From a virus (lineage: Duplodnaviria; Caudoviricetes): 64,000 nt of DNA. The notes below the pieces were generated by a model that was not told the origin of the DNA, did no database searches, and was given only the letters and a program-made list of their open reading frames with translations. Location of the stretch: positions 1 through 64,000 of the IMG/VR virus record IMGVR_UViG_3300005758_000087. One strand, written 5' to 3'. Position numbers and translations under genes: made by a program. Shown piece after piece: positions 1 to 53,329 of this stretch (the first letter of the stretch is position 1; each line of letters begins with the position of its first letter).

Positions 1-401
1 CCTTGCTTTCTTGTTCCGGCTTGCACTGCATGTCCAATTCTATGAGCCATCATCCACGGTGTCAACATAACTTTACTATCGCCCGTGTTGCCAACGAACA
101 CGATAGTAATTGCATCTTCACTGGCTTGAATAATTTGATTTGCATACTGACCAAATATTTCTTGTATATATTTTGGATCCATTGGACCATACTCACTGTA
201 CTTACCCGTACCAGATATATTACTAAAGAACAATCTAAAGTCATATGGAGTTTTTTCAAAGAACCTAGCAGTTTTTAATTGGTTAGTAGGATGCGGTACT
301 AATTTTTTGTCCGCTCCTCTAAAAGGTCCTGGCTTTTCAAAATCACCGATTGGTTGATAATCAGCTAGGGGTGCTTCGGTAATAAACTCAATAGCTCTCA
401 T
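1..401 (-). CDS. Hypothetical protein, 3'-truncated by the window edge; putative capsid-internal protein
   Basis: Not in the ORF track. Manual translation from the ATG at 401 (TAATG overlap with the dps stop) gives MRAIEFITEAPLADYQPIGDFEKPGPF...WMMAHRIGHAVQAG, open to position 1. Confidence 0.75.
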   Translation of the reverse strand, partial: MRAIEFITEAPLADYQPIGDFEKPGPFRGADKKLVPHPTNQLKTARFFEKTPYDFRLFFSNISGTGKYSEYGPMDPKYIQEIFGQYANQIIQASEDAITIVFVGNTGDSKVMLTPWMMAHRIGHAVQAGTRKQ

Positions 402-844
402 TATGCTCTTTCGCGTTTTAAAATGCTTCTAAGCATCCAGCCGTGTTTTCCGTGTGCATCAATTCTACTAGCAATGAAATCTGCAATACCTTGCTCATTT
501 TCTTCTTCTGCAATAACAAACATTTCTTTCCACATGGATAATATTTTAGCATTATCAGACAACAATTCAGCTATCATTAATTCAGCGCGAGGTATTTTAA
601 TTTGATCAGACACGATACTTAACTCTGCAAATCTAGTGATACTCCCAGGAGTGTAATGATCCAATACTCTTATATATTCTGCTGTTCTGTCGATGGCGTT
701 TTCGTTTATTTCCGAATACAAATCATCTAAAAATTTATGGTATTGTGGGAAATCAGGACCCTCAACGTTCCAGTGAAAGTTTTGAACTTTTATTTGAAAC
801 ACATAACTACTTGCTAATGCGATTTTTAAGCTGTCTACTAACAT
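401..844 (-). CDS. dps: Dps / ferritin-like DNA-protection protein
   Basis: NFHWNVEGPDFPQYHKFLDDLY..D..AE signature and C-terminal H.K..WML of Dps; 147 aa. Confidence 0.9.
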   Translation of the reverse strand: MLVDSLKIALASSYVFQIKVQNFHWNVEGPDFPQYHKFLDDLYSEINENAIDRTAEYIRVLDHYTPGSITRFAELSIVSDQIKIPRAELMIAELLSDNAKILSMWKEMFVIAEEENEQGIADFIASRIDAHGKHGWMLRSILKRERA

Positions 845-855
845 AATTTATCCTA

Positions 856-2049
856 TTAATGGAACAATAAATAAGTTCCCAAAACATCTGCGCGGTTTGC
901 ACTATCGTCACCGTCACCCGGTTTTACAATGACGTTATATATTGCTTTGTCACCTTCCGGAATACGCATCATTTCATCATATGTGATGATTGACTTAGGA
1001 TTAACATTGTATTTTTGTCCTAAGTCTAATTTTAATTGATTCAGGTCTTGCTGGCTTTTGTATTGCCATTTACCGCTTGTATCTTTTTGTAATATGTTTG
1101 CAAACATATCTTTTGGCACTACCCTGCTGTGTTTAACTTTTTGAAAGTCAATTTTCTTTTCTTGTTTTGGTTGGGCGCCGCCGCTGAAATTAATTCTGAA
1201 GTTTTTAGGTTTCGCACCACTAGCGACATCAGCTATTTTGGTGTATGCGTAAAATTTAACATCGGGATGCATGTTTGCAACATCGTATGCCAAATTTAGA
1301 TATTCTGGGCTAAAGAAGTCACCAGCGTCATGCCATCTGATTATTACTTGTGTATTCTTTTTAGCGTATTTTTTTTCTTCTTTTGAAATCTCTTCGTTCA
1401 ACTTATTTTTGAACCCTTCCGGATCGTTCAATAAAAAGTTTAATATTCTTGACTGACTCATTGAAGTAGCTTTCCACTGAACATATCCGCCCTTCATTGC
1501 ATAACAATAAATTTGACAGGCTCCTGCCCCCGGGCATGTATCCACCACCACAAAATCATTTGTATCTTCATCTACTGCTAATCCTTTAAGTGCCGGCAGA
1601 CCTATATTAAAAAATATACTAGAGCTACCATCACTGTGCACCATTTTTTCATTTTGCTTTAAAAGTTTTTCAGGGCGTTTTTTAATTTCTGCTTTTAATT
1701 TTTCTAAATCAAACTTTTTACCCGTTTCGCTATCTATAATTGGTATGTTGCTACCATGAATATATGGATTTTTGTATTTGTCTGTTTTTTTCTTTTCTTT
1801 GCCTAAAATTCTTTCTAGATAACTAGTCATTTCAGGTTCATCCATCTTACGTGTTCTGGCACCGAGCATTTTTTCTGCTTCGTACATCTCTTCGGCTACG
1901 CGACTTTCAGGGTCATCACTGCCTACAAACTGCTGCAAACTCACCACCTTAATTCCAGGTAATGCATCTCCAAAATCACTAGTTAAATTTTTGGCTTTTT
2001 TGGCCTTTAATTTTTTAGCTTCAACTAATAACAAATCTTTTATTTTCAT
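856..2049 (-). CDS. Gp88-like protein with CX5CX3C cysteine cluster
   Basis: TCPGAGACQIYCYAMKG and IRWHDAGDFF...YAYTK motifs recalled from the phage Gp88 family; N-terminus MKIKDLLLVEA. Confidence 0.55.
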   Translation of the reverse strand: MKIKDLLLVEAKKLKAKKAKNLTSDFGDALPGIKVVSLQQFVGSDDPESRVAEEMYEAEKMLGARTRKMDEPEMTSYLERILGKEKKKTDKYKNPYIHGSNIPIIDSETGKKFDLEKLKAEIKKRPEKLLKQNEKMVHSDGSSSIFFNIGLPALKGLAVDEDTNDFVVVDTCPGAGACQIYCYAMKGGYVQWKATSMSQSRILNFLLNDPEGFKNKLNEEISKEEKKYAKKNTQVIIRWHDAGDFFSPEYLNLAYDVANMHPDVKFYAYTKIADVASGAKPKNFRINFSGGAQPKQEKKIDFQKVKHSRVVPKDMFANILQKDTSGKWQYKSQQDLNQLKLDLGQKYNVNPKSIITYDEMMRIPEGDKAIYNVIVKPGDGDDSANRADVLGTYLLFH

Positions 2050-2067: not shown

Positions 2068-4698
2068 TTATTTTGATTTACTTCCCCAGTTTTTGGCGCC
2101 TTTTTTCCTACATTGCACTAAAGCACCACTAGCATATGCGCTAGGCCAAACTTTATAACGGCTTTTTACTTTGTAGTAGCAAGCATCTTTCTTTTCATTA
2201 ATCATTTCTTCAGAGTACATTGCACCGCCGCATTCAGGGCACATTTCATGACCTTCCGCTACACCTTGCTTTCTAAACACTCCACCACTCTTAAAAATGG
2301 CCACAATGTCTTTAGCAGAATCATTGCCACTGCTGCTGTAATTTAGCTTACCACTTCTAGTAACTTGTCCTTCGGCCCATCCATACCAACCTGGATCTTC
2401 TGTGTTGTGTTCAACTTCTACAAATTGTCTTGTGGGACTAGTCCAACGATATACATTGCCTTCTTGAGTTGGTGTGTATCCCAATTGCTGTAGCTTTGCA
2501 TCTAGTTTTTGTATGAAACTTGTTTTCTTCTTCAGAGTATCAGAATGAGCAAAACCTTTAGAAACTTTTTCGGCTTGACTCATTTTATCCACTTGTTTGC
2601 CAAGCTTCGGATCAACATCGTGCCAAGTTTTGGGATGCTCGCCTTCCGCCACACCTTCATTACTCTTTTTCTTTGTAGCTACATTGATAGCTGGTCCACT
2701 ACGTTCTGGATTTGGATCTTCTCTACGCTTACGTGCTGCCGCACTTGCACGACCCTTCTTACCTAAACTATGTGCTTTACTTTGTGGTAAACATTTTGGT
2801 TTGCCTTCACTGTCATCACCCCTAGCGCAAGGGCCCATTATTTTTCCCTGAGGATTAAATCTTACCCATTTTTCACGAAACCATTTTTTAAGGTCTTCAG
2901 TTACATCAATATCATTATTTTCGGTTTCTTTTACGTTGTATTTCTTTTTTAATTCTGCCGCTTTTTTATATCTCTCTTCGTCAGGAAGATCGAATGTAGC
3001 CTTTAACTCTTTATAATAATTGGGGTCAGGTAGTCCCGACTTTTTACGTAGTTCTTGATGACGCTTGTGCAGTTTGTCTTGTGCCGAACCTTCTACTATA
3101 TCTTTACCAGTTAGCTCAGTATATTCATTCCAGTAGAAATCCAAATCATCTTGCAAAACTGATTGTGCAAATTTGGACCCATATTTTTGGTCTAATAGAC
3201 TCCATAATTCTTCACCAAACTCATCACGGTCATAATCACTTACTTCGCTGGCAATGCGTTTGACCATGGGCATTACACAATTGAAAGTTCTATCTCCTAA
3301 AAAACCTTCCGCCACACCTTGCTCTTTCAATGGATAAGGCAAAGTTTTAATGCCTTTATACATTGACTGAACTTTGTTATAACGCTTAGTTTCTTTTTCT
3401 GCGTCTGGCAACGAACCTTGATTATAATGCCCCAAGACACGACCAAAATGTTTTGAAGCAACTACCTCAGGATGTTCTTTGCCTTTAACTGCTCTTTTGA
3501 CGCCTTTAACAATGTCAGAGAAGCCTTCCGCTACACCTTGCTTCATATCAACTACTGCGGCTCTTGTTCCGTGGTCGTTGTGTTCTCGGGCCACATATTG
3601 TTGTGCCCTGATTATAGCGACCTCTTCATTTTTAGCCTCAACCCAGACAGAATATGACCGCTTTTGTCCTTTGACTACTACCTTATATTTGTTTGTTTCA
3701 GAGCCTTCCGCCACACCTTTCTTTTTCAATGTGTCAGGATGTGCTAGGCCTTTCTTGACCTTTTCAGCCTGCGACATTTTATCTACAGCTTTACCAAGTT
3801 TTGGATCAACATCATGCCAGGTCTTGGGATGAGGCTTCTTCTCACCTTCCGCCACACCTTGCTCGTCTAATGGGTCATCTCTGACTGTAGGGCGATATTC
3901 TTGGGGTTCTAGACCTCTTATAGCTCTGTACGCTGCATCTAAAATTTCCATTCGAGTAGGATGATCTAGCCTTGCATACCATGGTTGTTCTTGCAACTGA
4001 TCAAACACATCTCTGCGTTCTGCATTCGCAAAGTTTTCGTCGTAGTCCCAATATGTAAACGATACCTTCTTACCTTCGATGTCCAAAGTCAAAATCATTT
4101 GATCTAGATCGTAATCTTGATCAACGACTCTGATGCCTTCTGCTACACTTTTTGTGGAAAATTTTTGTAACTTATCTATCTCTTTGTTCTCTAAATATTC
4201 TCTTACAGAATTTAAATAATCATTGGCTTTTATTATTTTTTCTTGAACCCAACCTTCAATTCCATCAGATTCAGTTAAATCCTTTATTAGCTCATATATT
4301 TTTTTGGAATTTTTATTTGCACTTACTAAATCACTTCTAGCCATTTCTACTTCATGATCTTGCCTTAATAAATCTTTTTTATGAAAGCCGGGTTTGGGTC
4401 CCTTTTTAGATATTGGATTAATAATTAAATCCTGTTCATTAATTTCTTCTTCTTTGACTGCTATAGAATTAGGGAATTTTTTACTGGTTTTAATTCCGGA
4501 AAATATATTTCCTCCGCGCTTTTGCAATGAACCTACGGGTTGACTGACGGTAGCAACGGCCCCCGATGTAGTTGTCTCTTCAATTTTATCATCTTCTAGT
4601 ACTTCAGGATTTCTTCCAAATTTTGGTGCGGATGAAGGATTATTGCCAATTGGGGTGCTAGAAGGAGTAGTAGTTTCTAAAAGAGTTTTTATTTTCAT
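2068..4698 (-). CDS. Modular putative capsid-internal polyprotein with repeated GVAEG linkers
   Basis: 876 aa; seven VAEG motifs separate unrelated 40-100 aa modules; one module occurs twice. Confidence 0.7.
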   Translation of the reverse strand: MKIKTLLETTTPSSTPIGNNPSSAPKFGRNPEVLEDDKIEETTTSGAVATVSQPVGSLQKRGGNIFSGIKTSKKFPNSIAVKEEEINEQDLIINPISKKGPKPGFHKKDLLRQDHEVEMARSDLVSANKNSKKIYELIKDLTESDGIEGWVQEKIIKANDYLNSVREYLENKEIDKLQKFSTKSVAEGIRVVDQDYDLDQMILTLDIEGKKVSFTYWDYDENFANAERRDVFDQLQEQPWYARLDHPTRMEILDAAYRAIRGLEPQEYRPTVRDDPLDEQGVAEGEKKPHPKTWHDVDPKLGKAVDKMSQAEKVKKGLAHPDTLKKKGVAEGSETNKYKVVVKGQKRSYSVWVEAKNEEVAIIRAQQYVAREHNDHGTRAAVVDMKQGVAEGFSDIVKGVKRAVKGKEHPEVVASKHFGRVLGHYNQGSLPDAEKETKRYNKVQSMYKGIKTLPYPLKEQGVAEGFLGDRTFNCVMPMVKRIASEVSDYDRDEFGEELWSLLDQKYGSKFAQSVLQDDLDFYWNEYTELTGKDIVEGSAQDKLHKRHQELRKKSGLPDPNYYKELKATFDLPDEERYKKAAELKKKYNVKETENNDIDVTEDLKKWFREKWVRFNPQGKIMGPCARGDDSEGKPKCLPQSKAHSLGKKGRASAAARKRREDPNPERSGPAINVATKKKSNEGVAEGEHPKTWHDVDPKLGKQVDKMSQAEKVSKGFAHSDTLKKKTSFIQKLDAKLQQLGYTPTQEGNVYRWTSPTRQFVEVEHNTEDPGWYGWAEGQVTRSGKLNYSSSGNDSAKDIVAIFKSGGVFRKQGVAEGHEMCPECGGAMYSEEMINEKKDACYYKVKSRYKVWPSAYASGALVQCRKKGAKNWGSKSK
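2252..4148 (-). repeat. Dispersed 16-bp repeat AAGGTGTRGCGGAAGG (GVAEG linker)
   Basis: On the + strand CCTTCCGCYACACCTT at 2252, 2642, 3305, 3524, 3704 and 3845; degenerate copy at 4136-4148. Confidence 0.9.
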
Positions 4699-4719: not shown

Positions 4720-4727
4720 TATTTATC
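4720..4727 (-). promoter_or_regulatory. Putative late promoter GATAAATA
   Basis: Lies about 20 nt upstream of the polyprotein ATG; resembles the T4 late promoter TATAAATA; the same motif recurs before many genes. Confidence 0.65.
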
Positions 4728-6666: not shown

Positions 6667-7584
6667 TTATTTTTCTTCTAGGTAATCTTGGCTTTCATTA
6701 ATAGATGGGGTAGCCGAAACTTTGCTGGGTCCATATACTATGGCTTCTCTGTTGAATCCGTGCAAATGCAAGTAGTCAAGTAGTTTAGGTACGTTTTTAT
6801 TAGGTATACCGGACTTGATTAAGTATTGGATCTTATTTCCTTTTCTATCGTTCCCTAACAGATATACATCAACCAAATCATTTGGACTAAGAACTATATT
6901 CTCATCTAATATTTCATGTTGAATGGATTTAGCTTCTTGTAATTTCTTCTTAAAGGCCAATAACTTATTATAGAAATTTTCAGTAAGTTGTAGATTTTTA
7001 TCAAATATAGGTTTTAATATTTTGGCCGCCTTAAGCCCATATAAATCAGTCAAAATTTTAGACCTAATATTATTATTTCCCTTAAAATAGGCTGCTCTGA
7101 TTGCGCTTGCATCGCGCATCGATTGCCCCAAAATAGGAAAATCGGCAACATCTGTGCTTATCACATATGCATGTTGCGTCATTGGTTTTTGTGGTCCTTT
7201 CACATATGGCTGTAAATAACTAGGATTTCCGTCTTTTTTAGATTGAAAACTAAATCGAGGGTCTTCTTGCATGTCTTTCTTGCTTACCCCAAATACCAAA
7301 ATAGTTTGCTCTGGATCTATTCCTGCGTTTTTAAATTTTTCTATATATTCTTGTGCTTGATACGGTTGCTTAACACTTATTATATTTTCTTTAGGAATTC
7401 CCAAAGCTATAGCCATTTTGGCTCGGTCACCTGCACTAAATGGACTTTTAGGCATTTCTTGTTTTTGACTTAACGCAAGATATGTATTGTTAATACCGAA
7501 TTCATTGGCTAGTTGATTAAAACTAGATGCGTGTCCTTTATGAAAGGGGTGAAATCTTCCGGGATATATAGCTATTACTTCCAT
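6667..7584 (-). CDS. HIGH-superfamily nucleotidyltransferase (cytidylyltransferase/NMNAT-like)
   Basis: N-terminal YPGRFHPFHKGH (HxGH) motif; SPFS..DR and MRDASAIR (KMSKS-like position). Confidence 0.7.
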   Translation of the reverse strand: MEVIAIYPGRFHPFHKGHASSFNQLANEFGINNTYLALSQKQEMPKSPFSAGDRAKMAIALGIPKENIISVKQPYQAQEYIEKFKNAGIDPEQTILVFGVSKKDMQEDPRFSFQSKKDGNPSYLQPYVKGPQKPMTQHAYVISTDVADFPILGQSMRDASAIRAAYFKGNNNIRSKILTDLYGLKAAKILKPIFDKNLQLTENFYNKLLAFKKKLQEAKSIQHEILDENIVLSPNDLVDVYLLGNDRKGNKIQYLIKSGIPNKNVPKLLDYLHLHGFNREAIVYGPSKVSATPSINESQDYLEEK

Positions 7585-8098: not shown

Positions 8099-8133
8099 GG
8101 TAAATACTCTCCATTATAGAGAGTATTTATCAC

Positions 8134-25948: not shown

Positions 25949-25956
25949 TATTTATC
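25949..25956 (-). promoter_or_regulatory. Putative late promoter GATAAATA
   Basis: Upstream of the tail-fibre gene, just after a terminator. Confidence 0.65.
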
Positions 25957-26023: not shown

Positions 26024-28492
26024 TTATTTTATACCGCTTAACTTCATCCAGTCAGCTATTGATTCTTTAACTGAAACTTGCGTTGGATTCATTACGGTTT
26101 GGTCTTTTTTCATTTTATGAAGGTCATTTCCCAAAGACAACAACGCCTTTAGCTTAGCTAGTTCAGTCGCTGCCATGGCATCGCCGCCAGCATCATTTGC
26201 AAAATTTTCGTCTACTTTAGAACAACCACATTCTGATTCATTCATGTCGTGAACTTCGCACATTTTTTCTTCCATTGTCGCCGGTTGATCCAATGCTTCT
26301 TCTTCTAAATTGCTAGTGTCTTTGTATTTTTTACCGTCTAGTTCAAATTCTTCACCTTTCTTAGTTGCTGCCAACTTTCCTGTGAATGCATTGCCTTCTT
26401 CCATATCGTTATGATATGATTCTTCTACTTCCTCATCATCCTGATATGATTCTTCCACTTCTTCATCTTCAGCTTCACTTACCGAAGATTGAGTTGAACT
26501 ACCTGACATCTTTTTAATTAGAGCCAACATGTCATCGCCGTCACCCACTACTTTAGGACTAGCTTCCGGTTCTGTACCTGATCCATCGGCGTGATCGGAT
26601 TGAACGCTCATCAATGAGCTATCGCCGGTCTGTTCTTCCGGTGTTTCTGAACCAAAAACGCCAAGCCCTGCTTTGCGAACTATACTTAATAATTCTGTTG
26701 CATCAGAGTCGGTAGCACTGATAGTAACGCTATCAGGAGATCCTTGCTGACCGGTACTAGAGGAAACAGTTAATCCTTCTACTAGTAGTGTGTTTAGCTG
26801 CTTTTCCCAGCTTTCAAATTGAATATCTTTCATGGTATCTTCCAAACTTAATTCAGGTGCACCTGATCTAAAAGGCGAAATTTCTGCTTTATCAGTTTTC
26901 GCTAAACGTACTGCATTCATTGACTGTTGTGGCTCAGGTTTAGTATCACATTCTTCTAAACTTTCGTCATAATTTGTGAATCCAAATTCTTCCAAAGCAT
27001 AATCGCGCAGTTGACCCTTTAAAGTTCCTGCCAAACGCTTATAGCGGTCACCGTGTTCTAAAGTGTTATTGATTACTCGTTTGGCAGCGGCTAAATCTTG
27101 CAACTCTACTGCATTGTTGATGTTGAATCCTCTAACCTTAGAAGTAGTTAAATCTTCAATGAATCTAGTAACTAAATCGCTCATCGCCCCTTCGTTCAAC
27201 AATGACTGGTCTTTAACTTCGACCCCCTCCATTGTAGGAATCTCAGGTTTTCCTTTTAAGAATCTACCGATATTTTTGACAACGGTTCCGGCTTGTCCCA
27301 ATTTTTGCTGAATTTTTCCCTTACCCATCCCAGCATGCGGGGCCAAACGTTCTTTAGGAGAAATCACATCTTTTCCGATGGCTGGGTTAGTGCCCTCTTC
27401 AGTTTTTTCTGATTTAACTTTTTCAGGTAACCCTTTATGTTTAGTTGCTGCAAAATCTTTAGCTGCTTTTTTACTCATAGTTTTTGCAACATCGGCTACC
27501 GCCTTACTTGCAGGCTTCTCGCCCTTCTGTGCAGCATGAACCATGCCCATAAACTTTTGCTGTGCTTTGCTTAATGCCTTTTCATTCATCGGGTGATTCA
27601 TATTTTGACCCTGTAATCTTAATGCACCGTCTCCGTTAGTGGACTCTTCTATGCTCTCATAATGAGTGCCTTTTTTTGCAATTGCGGTTTGTCCAATTTT
27701 TTGCATTGTTTTAGACAAGCCGCTTTTGTCATATGCAAAGGGATCAGATTTAGATGACTTTACTAAATTCCAAGCAGCATTTAACATTTGATCGTCAGGA
27801 TTTGTTGGTCTTTGTATTCCCTGTTTGTTAGCTATAGCCCCCACAGCATTCCAAAGAAATTTGGCACTCATAGGAACATTAGGATTTGAGGAGTATGCAC
27901 CACCTGCATTGTCTACCGTTGAGTACATTTTTCTTAGTCTATCAGGAGTTATTGTTTTGTTAACTCTGAAAAAATCTGCCATACTATCTAATACGCCTTC
28001 TTCTAGCTCGTCACCGGACAACGTCATTTCACCTTTACCGATACTCTGCTTTATTTGTGCAGCCAATTGAGGATTAGTAACAGTACCTAATGTTTTGTCT
28101 CCTTGCTTGATAACCTGTGTGTTTTGCTGCGCGGGCTGTATAGTAACTTGCTCTGCTTCATTTAAATGCACATTTTCTTCCACATACTCAATCCAGTCTT
28201 TTAATGTATGTTTTTTAGAAGGTGCACCAATTGGTTTTTTTGGTGGTTTTCCTATGCCAAAAGCTTTTCCTAAAGCATCAGTATCATATGATTTTTCATC
28301 AGATTGTTTTTTCGGCCGGCCGCGGCCTCTTTTTTCTTCAGGCTTTTTCTCGGCTTTTTCGTCACCTTCTTCATCGGTATCAAACTTTCTACCGTAGCCG
28401 CCTGGGCCAGCTTTGTGAACTCGACCTTTGCTTGTTTCTTGTGTTGCTTCACTTAGTTGGGTAAGTGAATTTAAAATATCTTTCAAATCCAT
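26024..28492 (-). CDS. Putative prohead-core / capsid-internal multi-module protein
   Basis: 822 aa; AT-hook (KRGRGRPKK); SKAQQKFMGMVHAAQKG module; many [ILVM]xE sites; acidic C-terminus with an EEVEESY tandem duplication. Confidence 0.55.
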   Translation of the reverse strand: MDLKDILNSLTQLSEATQETSKGRVHKAGPGGYGRKFDTDEEGDEKAEKKPEEKRGRGRPKKQSDEKSYDTDALGKAFGIGKPPKKPIGAPSKKHTLKDWIEYVEENVHLNEAEQVTIQPAQQNTQVIKQGDKTLGTVTNPQLAAQIKQSIGKGEMTLSGDELEEGVLDSMADFFRVNKTITPDRLRKMYSTVDNAGGAYSSNPNVPMSAKFLWNAVGAIANKQGIQRPTNPDDQMLNAAWNLVKSSKSDPFAYDKSGLSKTMQKIGQTAIAKKGTHYESIEESTNGDGALRLQGQNMNHPMNEKALSKAQQKFMGMVHAAQKGEKPASKAVADVAKTMSKKAAKDFAATKHKGLPEKVKSEKTEEGTNPAIGKDVISPKERLAPHAGMGKGKIQQKLGQAGTVVKNIGRFLKGKPEIPTMEGVEVKDQSLLNEGAMSDLVTRFIEDLTTSKVRGFNINNAVELQDLAAAKRVINNTLEHGDRYKRLAGTLKGQLRDYALEEFGFTNYDESLEECDTKPEPQQSMNAVRLAKTDKAEISPFRSGAPELSLEDTMKDIQFESWEKQLNTLLVEGLTVSSSTGQQGSPDSVTISATDSDATELLSIVRKAGLGVFGSETPEEQTGDSSLMSVQSDHADGSGTEPEASPKVVGDGDDMLALIKKMSGSSTQSSVSEAEDEEVEESYQDDEEVEESYHNDMEEGNAFTGKLAATKKGEEFELDGKKYKDTSNLEEEALDQPATMEEKMCEVHDMNESECGCSKVDENFANDAGGDAMAATELAKLKALLSLGNDLHKMKKDQTVMNPTQVSVKESIADWMKLSGIK

Positions 28493-29311: not shown

Positions 29312-29336
29312 TGTATTATTCCTGTTTTAGTATTTA

Positions 29337-29825
29337 TCAATCTGATGTTTTTTTACTAGCCAATATTGTCTTAAGTAATTCGTTTCGATCTAGAAGACTA
29401 CCTTCACCAACCGGAACATTTTCAATTTCTTTAGTTTTAGATTCTATTTTTTGATCAAGTGCAGCCTTTTTTAGCTGTAATTCTATCATTTTAAGTTTCT
29501 TGTTAATTTTTGCTGTTTTTGCATTTATTGCATGACCCAACATTGTTCCCGCACTGTTAAAAATCTCACTAGCGAACCTACTATCTACTTGCATACCCAA
29601 GTTCATTAAATCTTTATAGCTGTCAGTTGCTAACGTAGCCAAATTGTCTATTTCCATATCACTTGCTTCTAACCCCCTTACCTGAGGTAGTGCATTTTCT
29701 ATTTTTTCTAGATTAGAATAAGCCTCTTTTATTATTTCTTGATTTTCTATAGTTAGTTCAGGTTCAGGAATAGTTTGAGGAATATCCTCAGGTAGTTCAA
29801 AAAGTTCTGATAATTTTTTTGTCAT
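29337..29825 (-). CDS. Hypothetical helical protein, possibly terminase small subunit
   Basis: Size (162 aa), helical character and position next to the gp4-like gene; weak resemblance only. Confidence 0.3.
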   Translation of the reverse strand: MTKKLSELFELPEDIPQTIPEPELTIENQEIIKEAYSNLEKIENALPQVRGLEASDMEIDNLATLATDSYKDLMNLGMQVDSRFASEIFNSAGTMLGHAINAKTAKINKKLKMIELQLKKAALDQKIESKTKEIENVPVGEGSLLDRNELLKTILASKKTSD

Positions 29826-32569: not shown

Positions 32570-32602
32570 TATTTATCAGGGGCGATTTTTAAAAATCGCC
32601 CC
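32570..32602 (-). terminator. Sheath terminator hairpin abutting the tube-gene late promoter
   Basis: GGGGCGATTTT-TA-AAAATCGCCCC at 32579-32602; GATAAATA at 32570-32577. Confidence 0.65.
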
Positions 32603-38059: not shown

Positions 38060-38094
38060 AGTATATTCCTTTATATACTATTTATCGGGCGTAT

Positions 38095-51451: not shown

Positions 51452-51488
51452 AATATAATCTTTGTTTGATTATATTATTTATCAACCA

Positions 51489-53285: not shown

Positions 53286-53329
53286 AATTTTTCCCAAAGT
53301 TACATATTATATATTTATCTTCATTCAAC

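Follow-up and report, generated by a model that had tools for sequence, protein, structure and literature searches.

A codon-conserved linker bounds exchangeable modules in a phage polyprotein that may be cleaved cargo of a T4-type head

In the recombination cassettes of T4-type phages, short conserved sequences flanking variable genes act as crossover points; the mobile regulatory cassettes of these phages known as PeSL are reportedly the subject of work by Arbiol in 2010, and polymorphic internal protein (IP) loci of T-even phages were, it is said, described by Repoila in 1994. The T4 proteins IPI, IPII, IPIII and Alt carry a capsid targeting sequence, are processed by the prohead protease gp21 and are injected with the DNA, and cargo of the IP type is very variable between related phages while its targeting part is kept (PMC3012670). 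T4 gp21 cleaves after L/I-X-E, and Asp as the last residue of a T4 targeting peptide prevents processing (PMC9026906). In the giant phages phiKZ, 201phi2-1 and SPN3US, many inner-body and ejection proteins are loaded into the head and cut by gp21-like proteases after Glu in a three-residue motif, often at multiple sites per protein (PMC9026906). Here we describe a polyprotein gene in 64,000 nucleotides of viral DNA (positions 1 to 64,000 of the IMG/VR virus record IMGVR_UViG_3300005758_000087; hereafter, the window). The gene is a modular mosaic in which DNA is exchanged at the borders set by a linker, the codons of this linker are locked, and the motif profile of the linker fits gp21. We consider it probable that the product is a head-targeted cargo polyprotein cut by the prohead protease, and that the linker is at the same time a frame-preserving crossover site.

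The polyprotein and its parts, from the N-terminus of the chain to its C-terminus, are as follows.

2068-4698, minus strand: polyprotein open reading frame (ORF), 876 aa, 99 kDa
4675-4698, minus strand: leader MKIKTLLE, eight N-terminal residues ending in L-x-E, candidate capsid-targeting peptide
4138-4674, minus strand: module A, aa 9-187, constant N-terminal module with further I/L-x-E sites inside
3847-4137, minus strand: module B, aa 188-284, acidic (pI 4.3), most widely distributed of the cargo modules
3706-3846, minus strand: module C, aa 285-331, basic, 47 aa, copy 1 of a duplicate
3526-3705, minus strand: module D, aa 332-391
3307-3525, minus strand: module E, aa 392-464
3091-3306, minus strand: module F, aa 465-536, acidic, its C-terminal end an IVEG variant of the linker; also found in the relative P0124
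2644-3090, minus strand: modules G (aa 537-596) and H (aa 597-685)
2254-2643, minus strand: modules C2 (aa 686-728, copy 2 of the duplicate) and I (aa 729-815)
2071-2253, minus strand: module J, aa 816-876, basic, four-Cys, constant C-terminal module

The initial annotation of this DNA had described about ten unrelated modules in the ORF, one of them occurring twice with many synonymous differences, and both observations are borne out. Compared with each other, the modules show no similarity except for the duplicate pair and the common linker tails. The duplicated module is real and old; its copies (2524-2637 and 3718-3831) share 75% DNA identity, and 34 of the first 38 residues are identical, with 18 of those 34 codons synonymously different. 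The isoelectric point lies above 9 in 7 of the 10 predicted products, and B and F are strongly acidic. When 1.84 billion representatives (clusters at 50% identity) were searched exhaustively with phmmer, 4,777 matched at E ≤ 1e-3 and 708 at E ≤ 1e-30, with no full-length relative of the polyprotein among them. Each of the >2,000 proteins of 481-1533 aa returned by a word-indexed search matches only 7-35% of the query, at high identity. Module A is 82% identical in two such relatives (P0004 and P0005) and is N-terminal there too; among 120 relatives, module J is present in 111, and module H, which is constant, basic and DUF5872-like with a Cys pair, in 95.

A Pfam scan found no family above threshold in the ORF, the sole match being DUF5872 (PF19197; aa 576-623) at 20.7 bits, below the gathering cut-off of 27.5 bits. 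PHROG 23735 and PHROG 727 match module H, and no function emerged when the modules of the window were scanned singly against Pfam and PHROG; a weak PHROG match of module D to "RNA polymerase inhibitor" (E 0.003) was not relied on. An AlphaFold2 model of module B, based on an alignment of 21 sequences, has a predicted local distance difference test (pLDDT) score of 79.5; residues 1-79 are modelled as a compact domain (pLDDT 85-93) and the last 18 residues, linker included, as disordered. Foldseek comparison of this model with the PDB gave nothing below E 0.04, with template-modelling (TM) scores ≤ 0.44. For the whole chain, the Atlas model has a predicted TM score (pTM) of 0.19, as would be expected of beads on a string.

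The linker stands out both as peptide and as DNA. VAEG is present seven times in the polyprotein (starting at aa 185, 282, 329, 389, 462, 683 and 813), with an IVEG variant at aa 533-536, and a count over all six frames of the parent contig (81,682 bp, 24% complete) found no VAEG elsewhere. Six exact copies of the 16-mer AAGGTGTRGCGGAAGG and one copy with 2 mismatches all lie within the polyprotein ORF, against 0.06 expected from shuffled sequence. The Ala codon of the linker is GCG in 6 of 7 copies; outside the linkers, GCG accounts for only 4 of the gene's 51 Ala codons, and contig-wide for 11%. These counts agree with what had been noted initially, namely the seven VAEG motifs and their IVEG variant, the 16-mer shared by six linkers, the GCG codon kept within it, and a linker DNA better conserved than the duplicated cargo; the cargo has diverged at silent sites, and the linker DNA is therefore far better kept. 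The seven copies are listed here with the joints found at them, which are described below.

4136-4151, minus strand: linker DNA copy 1, 2 mismatches, encodes S-V-A-E-G
3845-3860, minus strand: linker DNA copy 2, exact; joint site in public-run contigs
3704-3719, minus strand: linker DNA copy 3, exact; joint site in public-run contigs
3524-3539, minus strand: linker DNA copy 4, exact; joint site in public-run contigs and crossover in locus L004
3305-3320, minus strand: linker DNA copy 5, exact; joint site in public-run contigs
2642-2657, minus strand: linker DNA copy 6, exact; joint site in public-run contigs
2252-2267, minus strand: linker DNA copy 7, exact; public-run contig ends and loose ends fall here

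The same codons are locked across the family. We compared 39 VAEG linkers from 35 distinct family ORFs with the rest of the same ORFs as background: Ala is encoded by GCG in 33 of the 39 (background 8%), Val by GTG in 30 (18%) and the Gly that follows the Glu by GGC in 32 (27%), and the codons preceding the linker are mostly CAA GGT. The exact 17-mer CAAGGTGTGGCGGAAGG was found in at least 119 IMG/VR stretches. Of the copies examined, 97 of 102 lie in the QGVAEG frame of ORFs of at least 150 aa, where they adjoin 96 different downstream and 97 different upstream flanks. Because about 100 unrelated flanks stand beside the 17-mer, common descent of the flanks is no explanation, and protein-level selection does not account for the fixed silent sites of the linker. 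To judge from these sequences, the linker DNA itself must be constrained or constantly homogenised. Survivorship of those linkers that recombine is the simplest account of the silent-site conservation; a dedicated enzyme or a hot-spot function acting on the linker DNA is possible, and hypothetical, as are a Chi-like role or ribosome pausing at this G-rich sequence.

Rare codons fixed at silent positions over hundreds of contigs, where protein-level selection fails as an explanation, might also mean that the linker is primarily a DNA signal (a recombination hot spot, for instance, or a site for a dedicated nuclease or recombinase) and that the peptide is incidental. We give this reading little credence, since nearly all examined copies keep to one reading frame of long ORFs, since diverged linkers retain the pattern hydrophobic-x-Glu-small despite changed DNA, including two-base changes at P2, and since no associated enzyme was identified. 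It can nevertheless hold together with the explanation by cleaved head cargo. A more ambitious proposal unites the two, making the linker a dedicated dual-code element whose peptide would be cut by the head protease and whose rare-codon DNA would be recognised or favoured by a recombination function of the phage, a protein-level analogue of the integron. We put this forward as a tentative and rather unlikely idea; if true, it would amount to an intragenic, frame-preserving cassette system through which giant aquatic phages quickly reshuffle the anti-host toolkit that they inject.

That modules are gained, lost and shuffled at the linker DNA, as the initial annotation had suggested, is supported directly by the proteins and DNA of relatives and by contigs from public sequencing runs; when the loci of relatives are aligned, both order and content change exactly at the linker. 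A fixed module order lacking indels at the linkers, which the initial annotation had named as a refutation, is clearly not what these loci show. The modules of the window recur elsewhere at 80-100% identity and in other orders, with boundaries that are residue-exact at linkers. The order is C2-I-D-x-B..G..J in P0002, C-B-C2-I-G-J in P0003, J-B-F in P0011 and H-B..J in P0008. Splitting 240 relatives at the linker yielded 968 segments in 416 clusters; the module B cluster (152 members) has 77 types of left neighbour and 51 types of right neighbour, the module C cluster (50 members) has 29 and 33, respectively, and leader-type segments occupy the first place only. Module B follows four or more different leaders, and its first residue is in every case the Gly after x-A/S-E. 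In the 102-aa relative P0184, module D alone stands between a conserved leader and a conserved trailer, with (G)VAE at both junctions, and this leader and trailer also flank two or three cargo modules in P0183, P0124 and P0192. Such free permutation behind a fixed leader is expected if the parts are separated after loading.

These four mini-arrays, with their conserved 22-residue leader, 20-residue trailer and one to three cargos, are the smallest form of the system. Many of the relatives P0049-P0120 begin with M-S-x-I-L/I-K-G-L, a heptad that reappears within other chains or close to their C-terminus (..ESAIMKGL..) and that may be a second linker or leader type belonging to another lineage.

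At the DNA level, more than 10 IMG/VR loci share the synteny ClpA, glycosyltransferase, cytidylyltransferase, variable polyprotein, Dps, and blocks of DNA homology between these loci and the window end at linkers. In locus L004, the left side of the D>B joint aligns with D>E of the window and the right side with A>B, the switch lying inside the 16-mer. An 85.8-kb contig from a public run, which represents a 98%-identical phage, has the order A-B-[F-G-H]-E-D-C2, with joints 3845>3304, 3522>2641, 3703>3305 and 3533>2650; its modules E and D have 0 differences from the window. A contig from another study's run has C-B-C2-I, an order matching P0003. All public-run joints that have long flanks and 5-20 letters fitting either side are located at linker copies. 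Logan contigs are assembled from 31-mers. Misassembly was considered as the source of the permuted contigs and rejected, because 31-mers exceed and span the 16-20-nt repeat and the joints should therefore be real.

The variation of the linker peptide is as informative as its conservation. VAEG was seen 192 times in the 120 relatives, against 2.7 expected. Among the variants, P4 is mostly Gly; P3 is Val, followed by Met and Leu; P2 is Ala, with Glu, Asp, Thr, Ser, Asn and Lys each 5-10x above expectation; P1 is Glu only, VADG occurring twice, which is chance level; and P1' is Gly, then Ala, Glu, Asp and Ser. A hydrophobic P3, a free P2 and an invariant P1 Glu fit the gp21 rule, and the internal sites of the polyprotein (7 VAEG and 1 IVEG) follow the pattern hydrophobic-x-Glu with its obligatory Glu. 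The protease itself is encoded by G001, a 335-kb, 95% complete IMG/VR contig whose tail sheath protein is 59% identical over its full length to that of the window. G001 has a gp21-type Peptidase_S77 prohead protease (E 6.7e-29) in a head block of portal, core, protease, scaffold and capsid genes, and its capsid protein is of the gp23 type. Within the 369 aa of its scaffold there are 28 [VILM]xE sites, one of them L-V-A-E-G, and its capsid protein has 4 such sites in the first 43 residues, the last of which, L-A-E|S, is positioned where T4 gp23 is cut. Both gp21 and gp23 are present in 3 of 5 other large linker-bearing contigs.

The shuffling and the codon lock require no cleavage, and the chain could instead be an uncut multidomain ("polyvalent") protein, virion-borne or late, whose modules act while tethered, with GVAEG as a flexible spacer kept as an in-frame recombination site. 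Polyvalent proteins with 2-15 domains are delivered whole (PMC5512222), and the linker is disordered in the model of module B, as any spacer would be. We think this improbable. A spacer would not hold Glu invariant beside one free position and one hydrophobic one, single-module mini-genes would not be expected to keep a leader and a trailer that look cleavable, and the permutation of modules with only the leader fixed is more tolerable if the parts separate.

Evidence on where cleavage might take place comes from leaders, a promoter-like box and a homologue in virions. The N-terminus of T4 IPII and IPIII is MKTYQEFIAE, and the polyprotein start MKIKTLLE (L-L-E) is similar to it in form and not the same. 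Four genes of G001 have leaders of the form MRAxEFxxE, two of them beside its polyprotein locus, and six have leaders resembling T4-type targeting peptides, four of them near that locus. In the window, the ORF at 3-401 (minus strand) starts with MRAIEFITE; a contig gene beyond the window (79764-80159, minus strand) starts with MRAYEFISE. Both leaders are very similar to MKTYQEFIAE, and the two genes likely encode further head cargo. In module A, the stretch TSGAV..P.G..KR (aa 42-61, about 4516-4575, minus strand) directly follows an I-E-E site and resembles the N-terminus of mature T4 gp23 (aa 84-101) as well as the beginning of the G001 capsid protein past its L-A-E|S site; in other leaders the same stretch comes straight after the 8-residue tag. 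The stretch may mimic capsid or scaffold and so serve in loading.

The box GATAAATA is found 21 nt upstream of the polyprotein ATG and 16-26 nt ahead of other genes of the contig, including those for a head-tail adaptor (38059) and virion structural proteins (44591 and 53285). It is similar to the late promoter of T4, TATAAATA, and is probably the late promoter of this phage, in a T4-like form (NATAAATA). The public runs listed as containing the polyprotein gene include no RNA run.

4720-4727, minus strand: late-promoter-like box GATAAATA, 21 nt upstream of the polyprotein ATG
8124-8131, 25949-25956, 29331-29338, 32570-32577, 38079-38086, 51476-51483 and 53312-53319, all minus strand: further GATAAATA boxes, located, like the one above, 19-26 nt ahead of a start codon

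A homologue of parts of the polyprotein is known from virions. In SSM1_115 of cyanophage S-SM1, a member of the T4-GC119 group, module J recurs at 77% identity (E 2e-19) and module H at 33% (E 5e-9), the remaining sequence being unrelated. T4-GC119 was recorded as a structural protein of purified S-SM1 virions with 13 peptide counts, and the length of its gene is hypervariable, spanning 276-2985 nt across 16 cyanophages (Sullivan et al. 2010, PMC3037559, Suppl. Table 8). Virions thus do carry a protein composed of the constant modules H and J; what is demonstrated is presence, not processing. The cyanophage core cytidylyltransferase T4-GC190 was found in the same virions with 25 counts (PMC3037559, Suppl. 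Table 8).

These data bear on a further alternative, that the linkers are cut outside the head by another protease of phage or host, in the cytoplasm late in infection, so that the products act in the producing cell. The motif profile as such shows only some Glu-specific recognition, the parent contig has no protease, and two linker-bearing contigs are without gp21. We nonetheless regard cytoplasmic cutting as very unlikely: the motif is that of the gp21 rule and of the sites that crowd the G001 scaffold and capsid propeptide, the leader resembles a capsid targeting sequence, the gene has a late box, and the homologue sharing H and J was found in purified virions. Moreover, both gp21-less contigs also lack gp23, so that their head region is probably absent.

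Our preferred explanation, cleaved head cargo with a recombining linker, would then run as follows. The polyprotein gene would be transcribed late, and a gp21-type prohead protease would cut after Glu in the (Q/E/K)-G-V-A-E|G linkers and at related I/L/V-x-E sites. About ten small proteins of 5-20 kDa, mostly basic, would be released, stay with the DNA and likely enter the host alongside it. In the genome, the linker would act as a DNA repeat of 16-18 nt, identical and always in frame, and homologous recombination between linkers could reorder, delete, duplicate and import modules with the reading frame intact. Cutting the modules apart would make their order irrelevant, and rearrangements would therefore be tolerated; the array could thus evolve as a cassette store. 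We infer targeting, cleavage, packaging, injection and the functions of the modules. Proteolysis and packaging, which the initial annotation had also proposed, agree with the motif profile, the gp21 and gp23 of relatives, the late box, the N-terminus resembling a capsid targeting sequence, the disordered linker and the S-SM1 homologue.

Several observations weigh against this explanation. The linker has Val at P3, where the published T4 rule has Leu or Ile, and its conservation from P5 to P1' and at synonymous sites exceeds what a gp21 site needs; the linker therefore bears at least one further constraint. The MRAxEFIxE leaders of neighbouring genes are closer to the T4 targeting peptide than is the leader of the polyprotein. 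The S-SM1 homologue shares two constant modules only and has few VAE sites, and its detection speaks for presence and not for processing. No gp21 or gp23 match was obtained in two large contigs that carry the 17-mer and were reached through L115 and L152 (G004, 342,865 bp, and G008, 262,308 bp); the head block may be missing from them, or the linker may occur in another lineage as well. Finally, no protease or capsid gene was matched in the parent contig, and the case for the protease comes from relatives; at 24% completeness of the contig, this negative is uninformative.

The surrounding genes place the polyprotein in a large myovirus. The contig encodes a contractile tail (sheath and tube), DnaB, primase and clamp loader, and around the polyprotein lie genes for ClpA, DnaJ, Dps/ferritin, a GP88-family protein and nucleotidyltransferases. 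The sheath match to G001 and the gp21/gp23 head block of G001 place the window in a giant T4-superfamily myovirus, with a genome of about 340 kb. Among cultured phages, the closest capsid proteins belong to Vibrio phage 2.275.O (67%), Pseudomonas phage PA5oct (66%) and the PBECO4/121Q group (62%). A 20-kb part of the window had no megablast match among phage records. Public runs containing pieces of the polyprotein gene derive from wastewater, lagoon, freshwater and aquaculture samples.

856-2049, minus strand: GP88-family gene, leader MKIKDLLLVE (similar to that of the polyprotein), 18 nt downstream of the polyprotein
401-844, minus strand: Dps/ferritin-like gene, conserved downstream border of the variable polyprotein locus
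39450, 39651, 39821, 39961, 40349, 42316, 42737 and 43061, minus strand: GGAGTTGAAGAATGA junctions

The GP88-family protein has an R-V-A-E|E site, with VAE near aa 51-53, and GP88 is fused behind a QGVAE linker in G001 (226349-227950) and in P0104; it is probably cargo of the same kind as the polyprotein. The Dps/ferritin gene lies directly downstream of the variable region in nearly all related loci (L003-L046). A cytidylyltransferase-like gene (6667-7584, minus strand) is located three genes upstream of the polyprotein, and a cytidylyltransferase domain is fused to linker-joined modules in P0082 and P0109. Within the contig, [VILM]xE[GAS] sites are densest (12) in the 822-aa ORF at 26024-28492 (minus strand), which begins with a leader ending in L-S-E|A and has a homologue in G001; its product is a further candidate core or cargo protein for gp21 processing. 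Another repeated junction, GGAGTTGAAGAATGA, encodes ..GVEE, a stop and the next ATG, and joins small genes; its DNA differs from that of the linker and it was rejected as an element of the polyprotein system, so that the phage seems to use two separate junction-based cassette systems. The chains of relatives carry Sigma70 region 4 (Sigma70_r4), HicA-toxin, GNAT, cytidine/dCMP deaminase, LysM, carbonic anhydrase, DUF6321 and DUF5872 modules. The cargo might accordingly be a delivered toolkit for host takeover or anti-defence, effector-type functions being known only as these Pfam domains of relatives.

If our explanation is true, a large and abundant group of giant aquatic phages (4,777 representative clusters at 50% identity, with the exact linker in at least 119 IMG/VR stretches) ships, along with its DNA, a variable set of small proteins encoded by one gene, and one short sequence handles head loading, release of the parts and frame-safe exchange between phages. 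The arrays would then form a natural catalogue of hundreds of uncharacterised, linker-delimited candidate mini-proteins for anti-defence or host takeover; their precise module borders would make the question of injected proteins directly testable, and they would offer a natural design for multi-cargo loading of T4-type capsids. The codon-locked linker is also a rare clear case of silent-site selection tied to recombination. Our literature search found no paper on the linker or the chains and none using GVAEG in a phage context; DUF5872 appeared in one unrelated paper, and a 2026 review of jumbo phages was silent on polyproteins.

How does this locus compare with the systems described? Like T4 IPI, IPII, IPIII and Alt, the polyprotein has a short leader ending in hydrophobic-x-Glu, a gp21-type protease in its lineage, small and often basic cargo that varies strongly between relatives and, to judge from the box, probably late expression. 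In contrast, each T4 cargo has one gene and its own leader, whereas here about ten cargos share one frame and one leader, and the internal repeated site is fixed at the DNA level as well; no homology to any T4 IP was seen in the polyprotein. The polyvalent proteins that Iyer, Burroughs, Anand, de Souza and Aravind (2017, PMC5512222) described from phages and conjugative elements likewise have many unrelated, conflict-type domains per polypeptide and are thought to travel with the DNA, and about ten modules here, together with relatives bearing varied Pfam domains, agree with many unrelated domains in one phage polypeptide. The modules are much smaller than polyvalent-protein domains, however, the Pfam scan found none of the polyvalent marker domains (zincin-like MPTase, ArdC-N, methylases, ART and others) in the polyprotein, and that study makes no mention of a uniform linker, cyanophages or prohead-protease processing.

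Inner-body proteins of the phiKZ type have an S/A-x-E motif and separate paralogous genes, whereas P3 here is Val, Leu or Met and the cargo forms a cassette chain; tblastn of phage records gave no matches in the phiKZ group, and the capsid protein of this lineage is nearest the PA5oct, PBECO4 and Vibrio 2.275.O group. The cyanophage T4-GC119 proteins (S-SM1 SSM1_115, Syn9 gp114) have modules J and H in common with the polyprotein at the identities given above, but are mostly basic chains of Cys modules with few VAE sites, encoded between g16 and g17 and not at a ClpA-Dps locus, and no codon-locked linker was noted in their genes. In PeSL and IP cassettes the junctions are intergenic (promoter, stem-loop, gene start), whereas those described here lie within an ORF, keep the frame and double as a peptide signal. 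The parts are thus known, namely capsid targeting with gp21 processing in T4, polyvalent proteins, and cassette exchange at short junctions in T4-type phages; what is new is to find them united in a single reading frame, together with a linker that is codon-locked and serves two uses.

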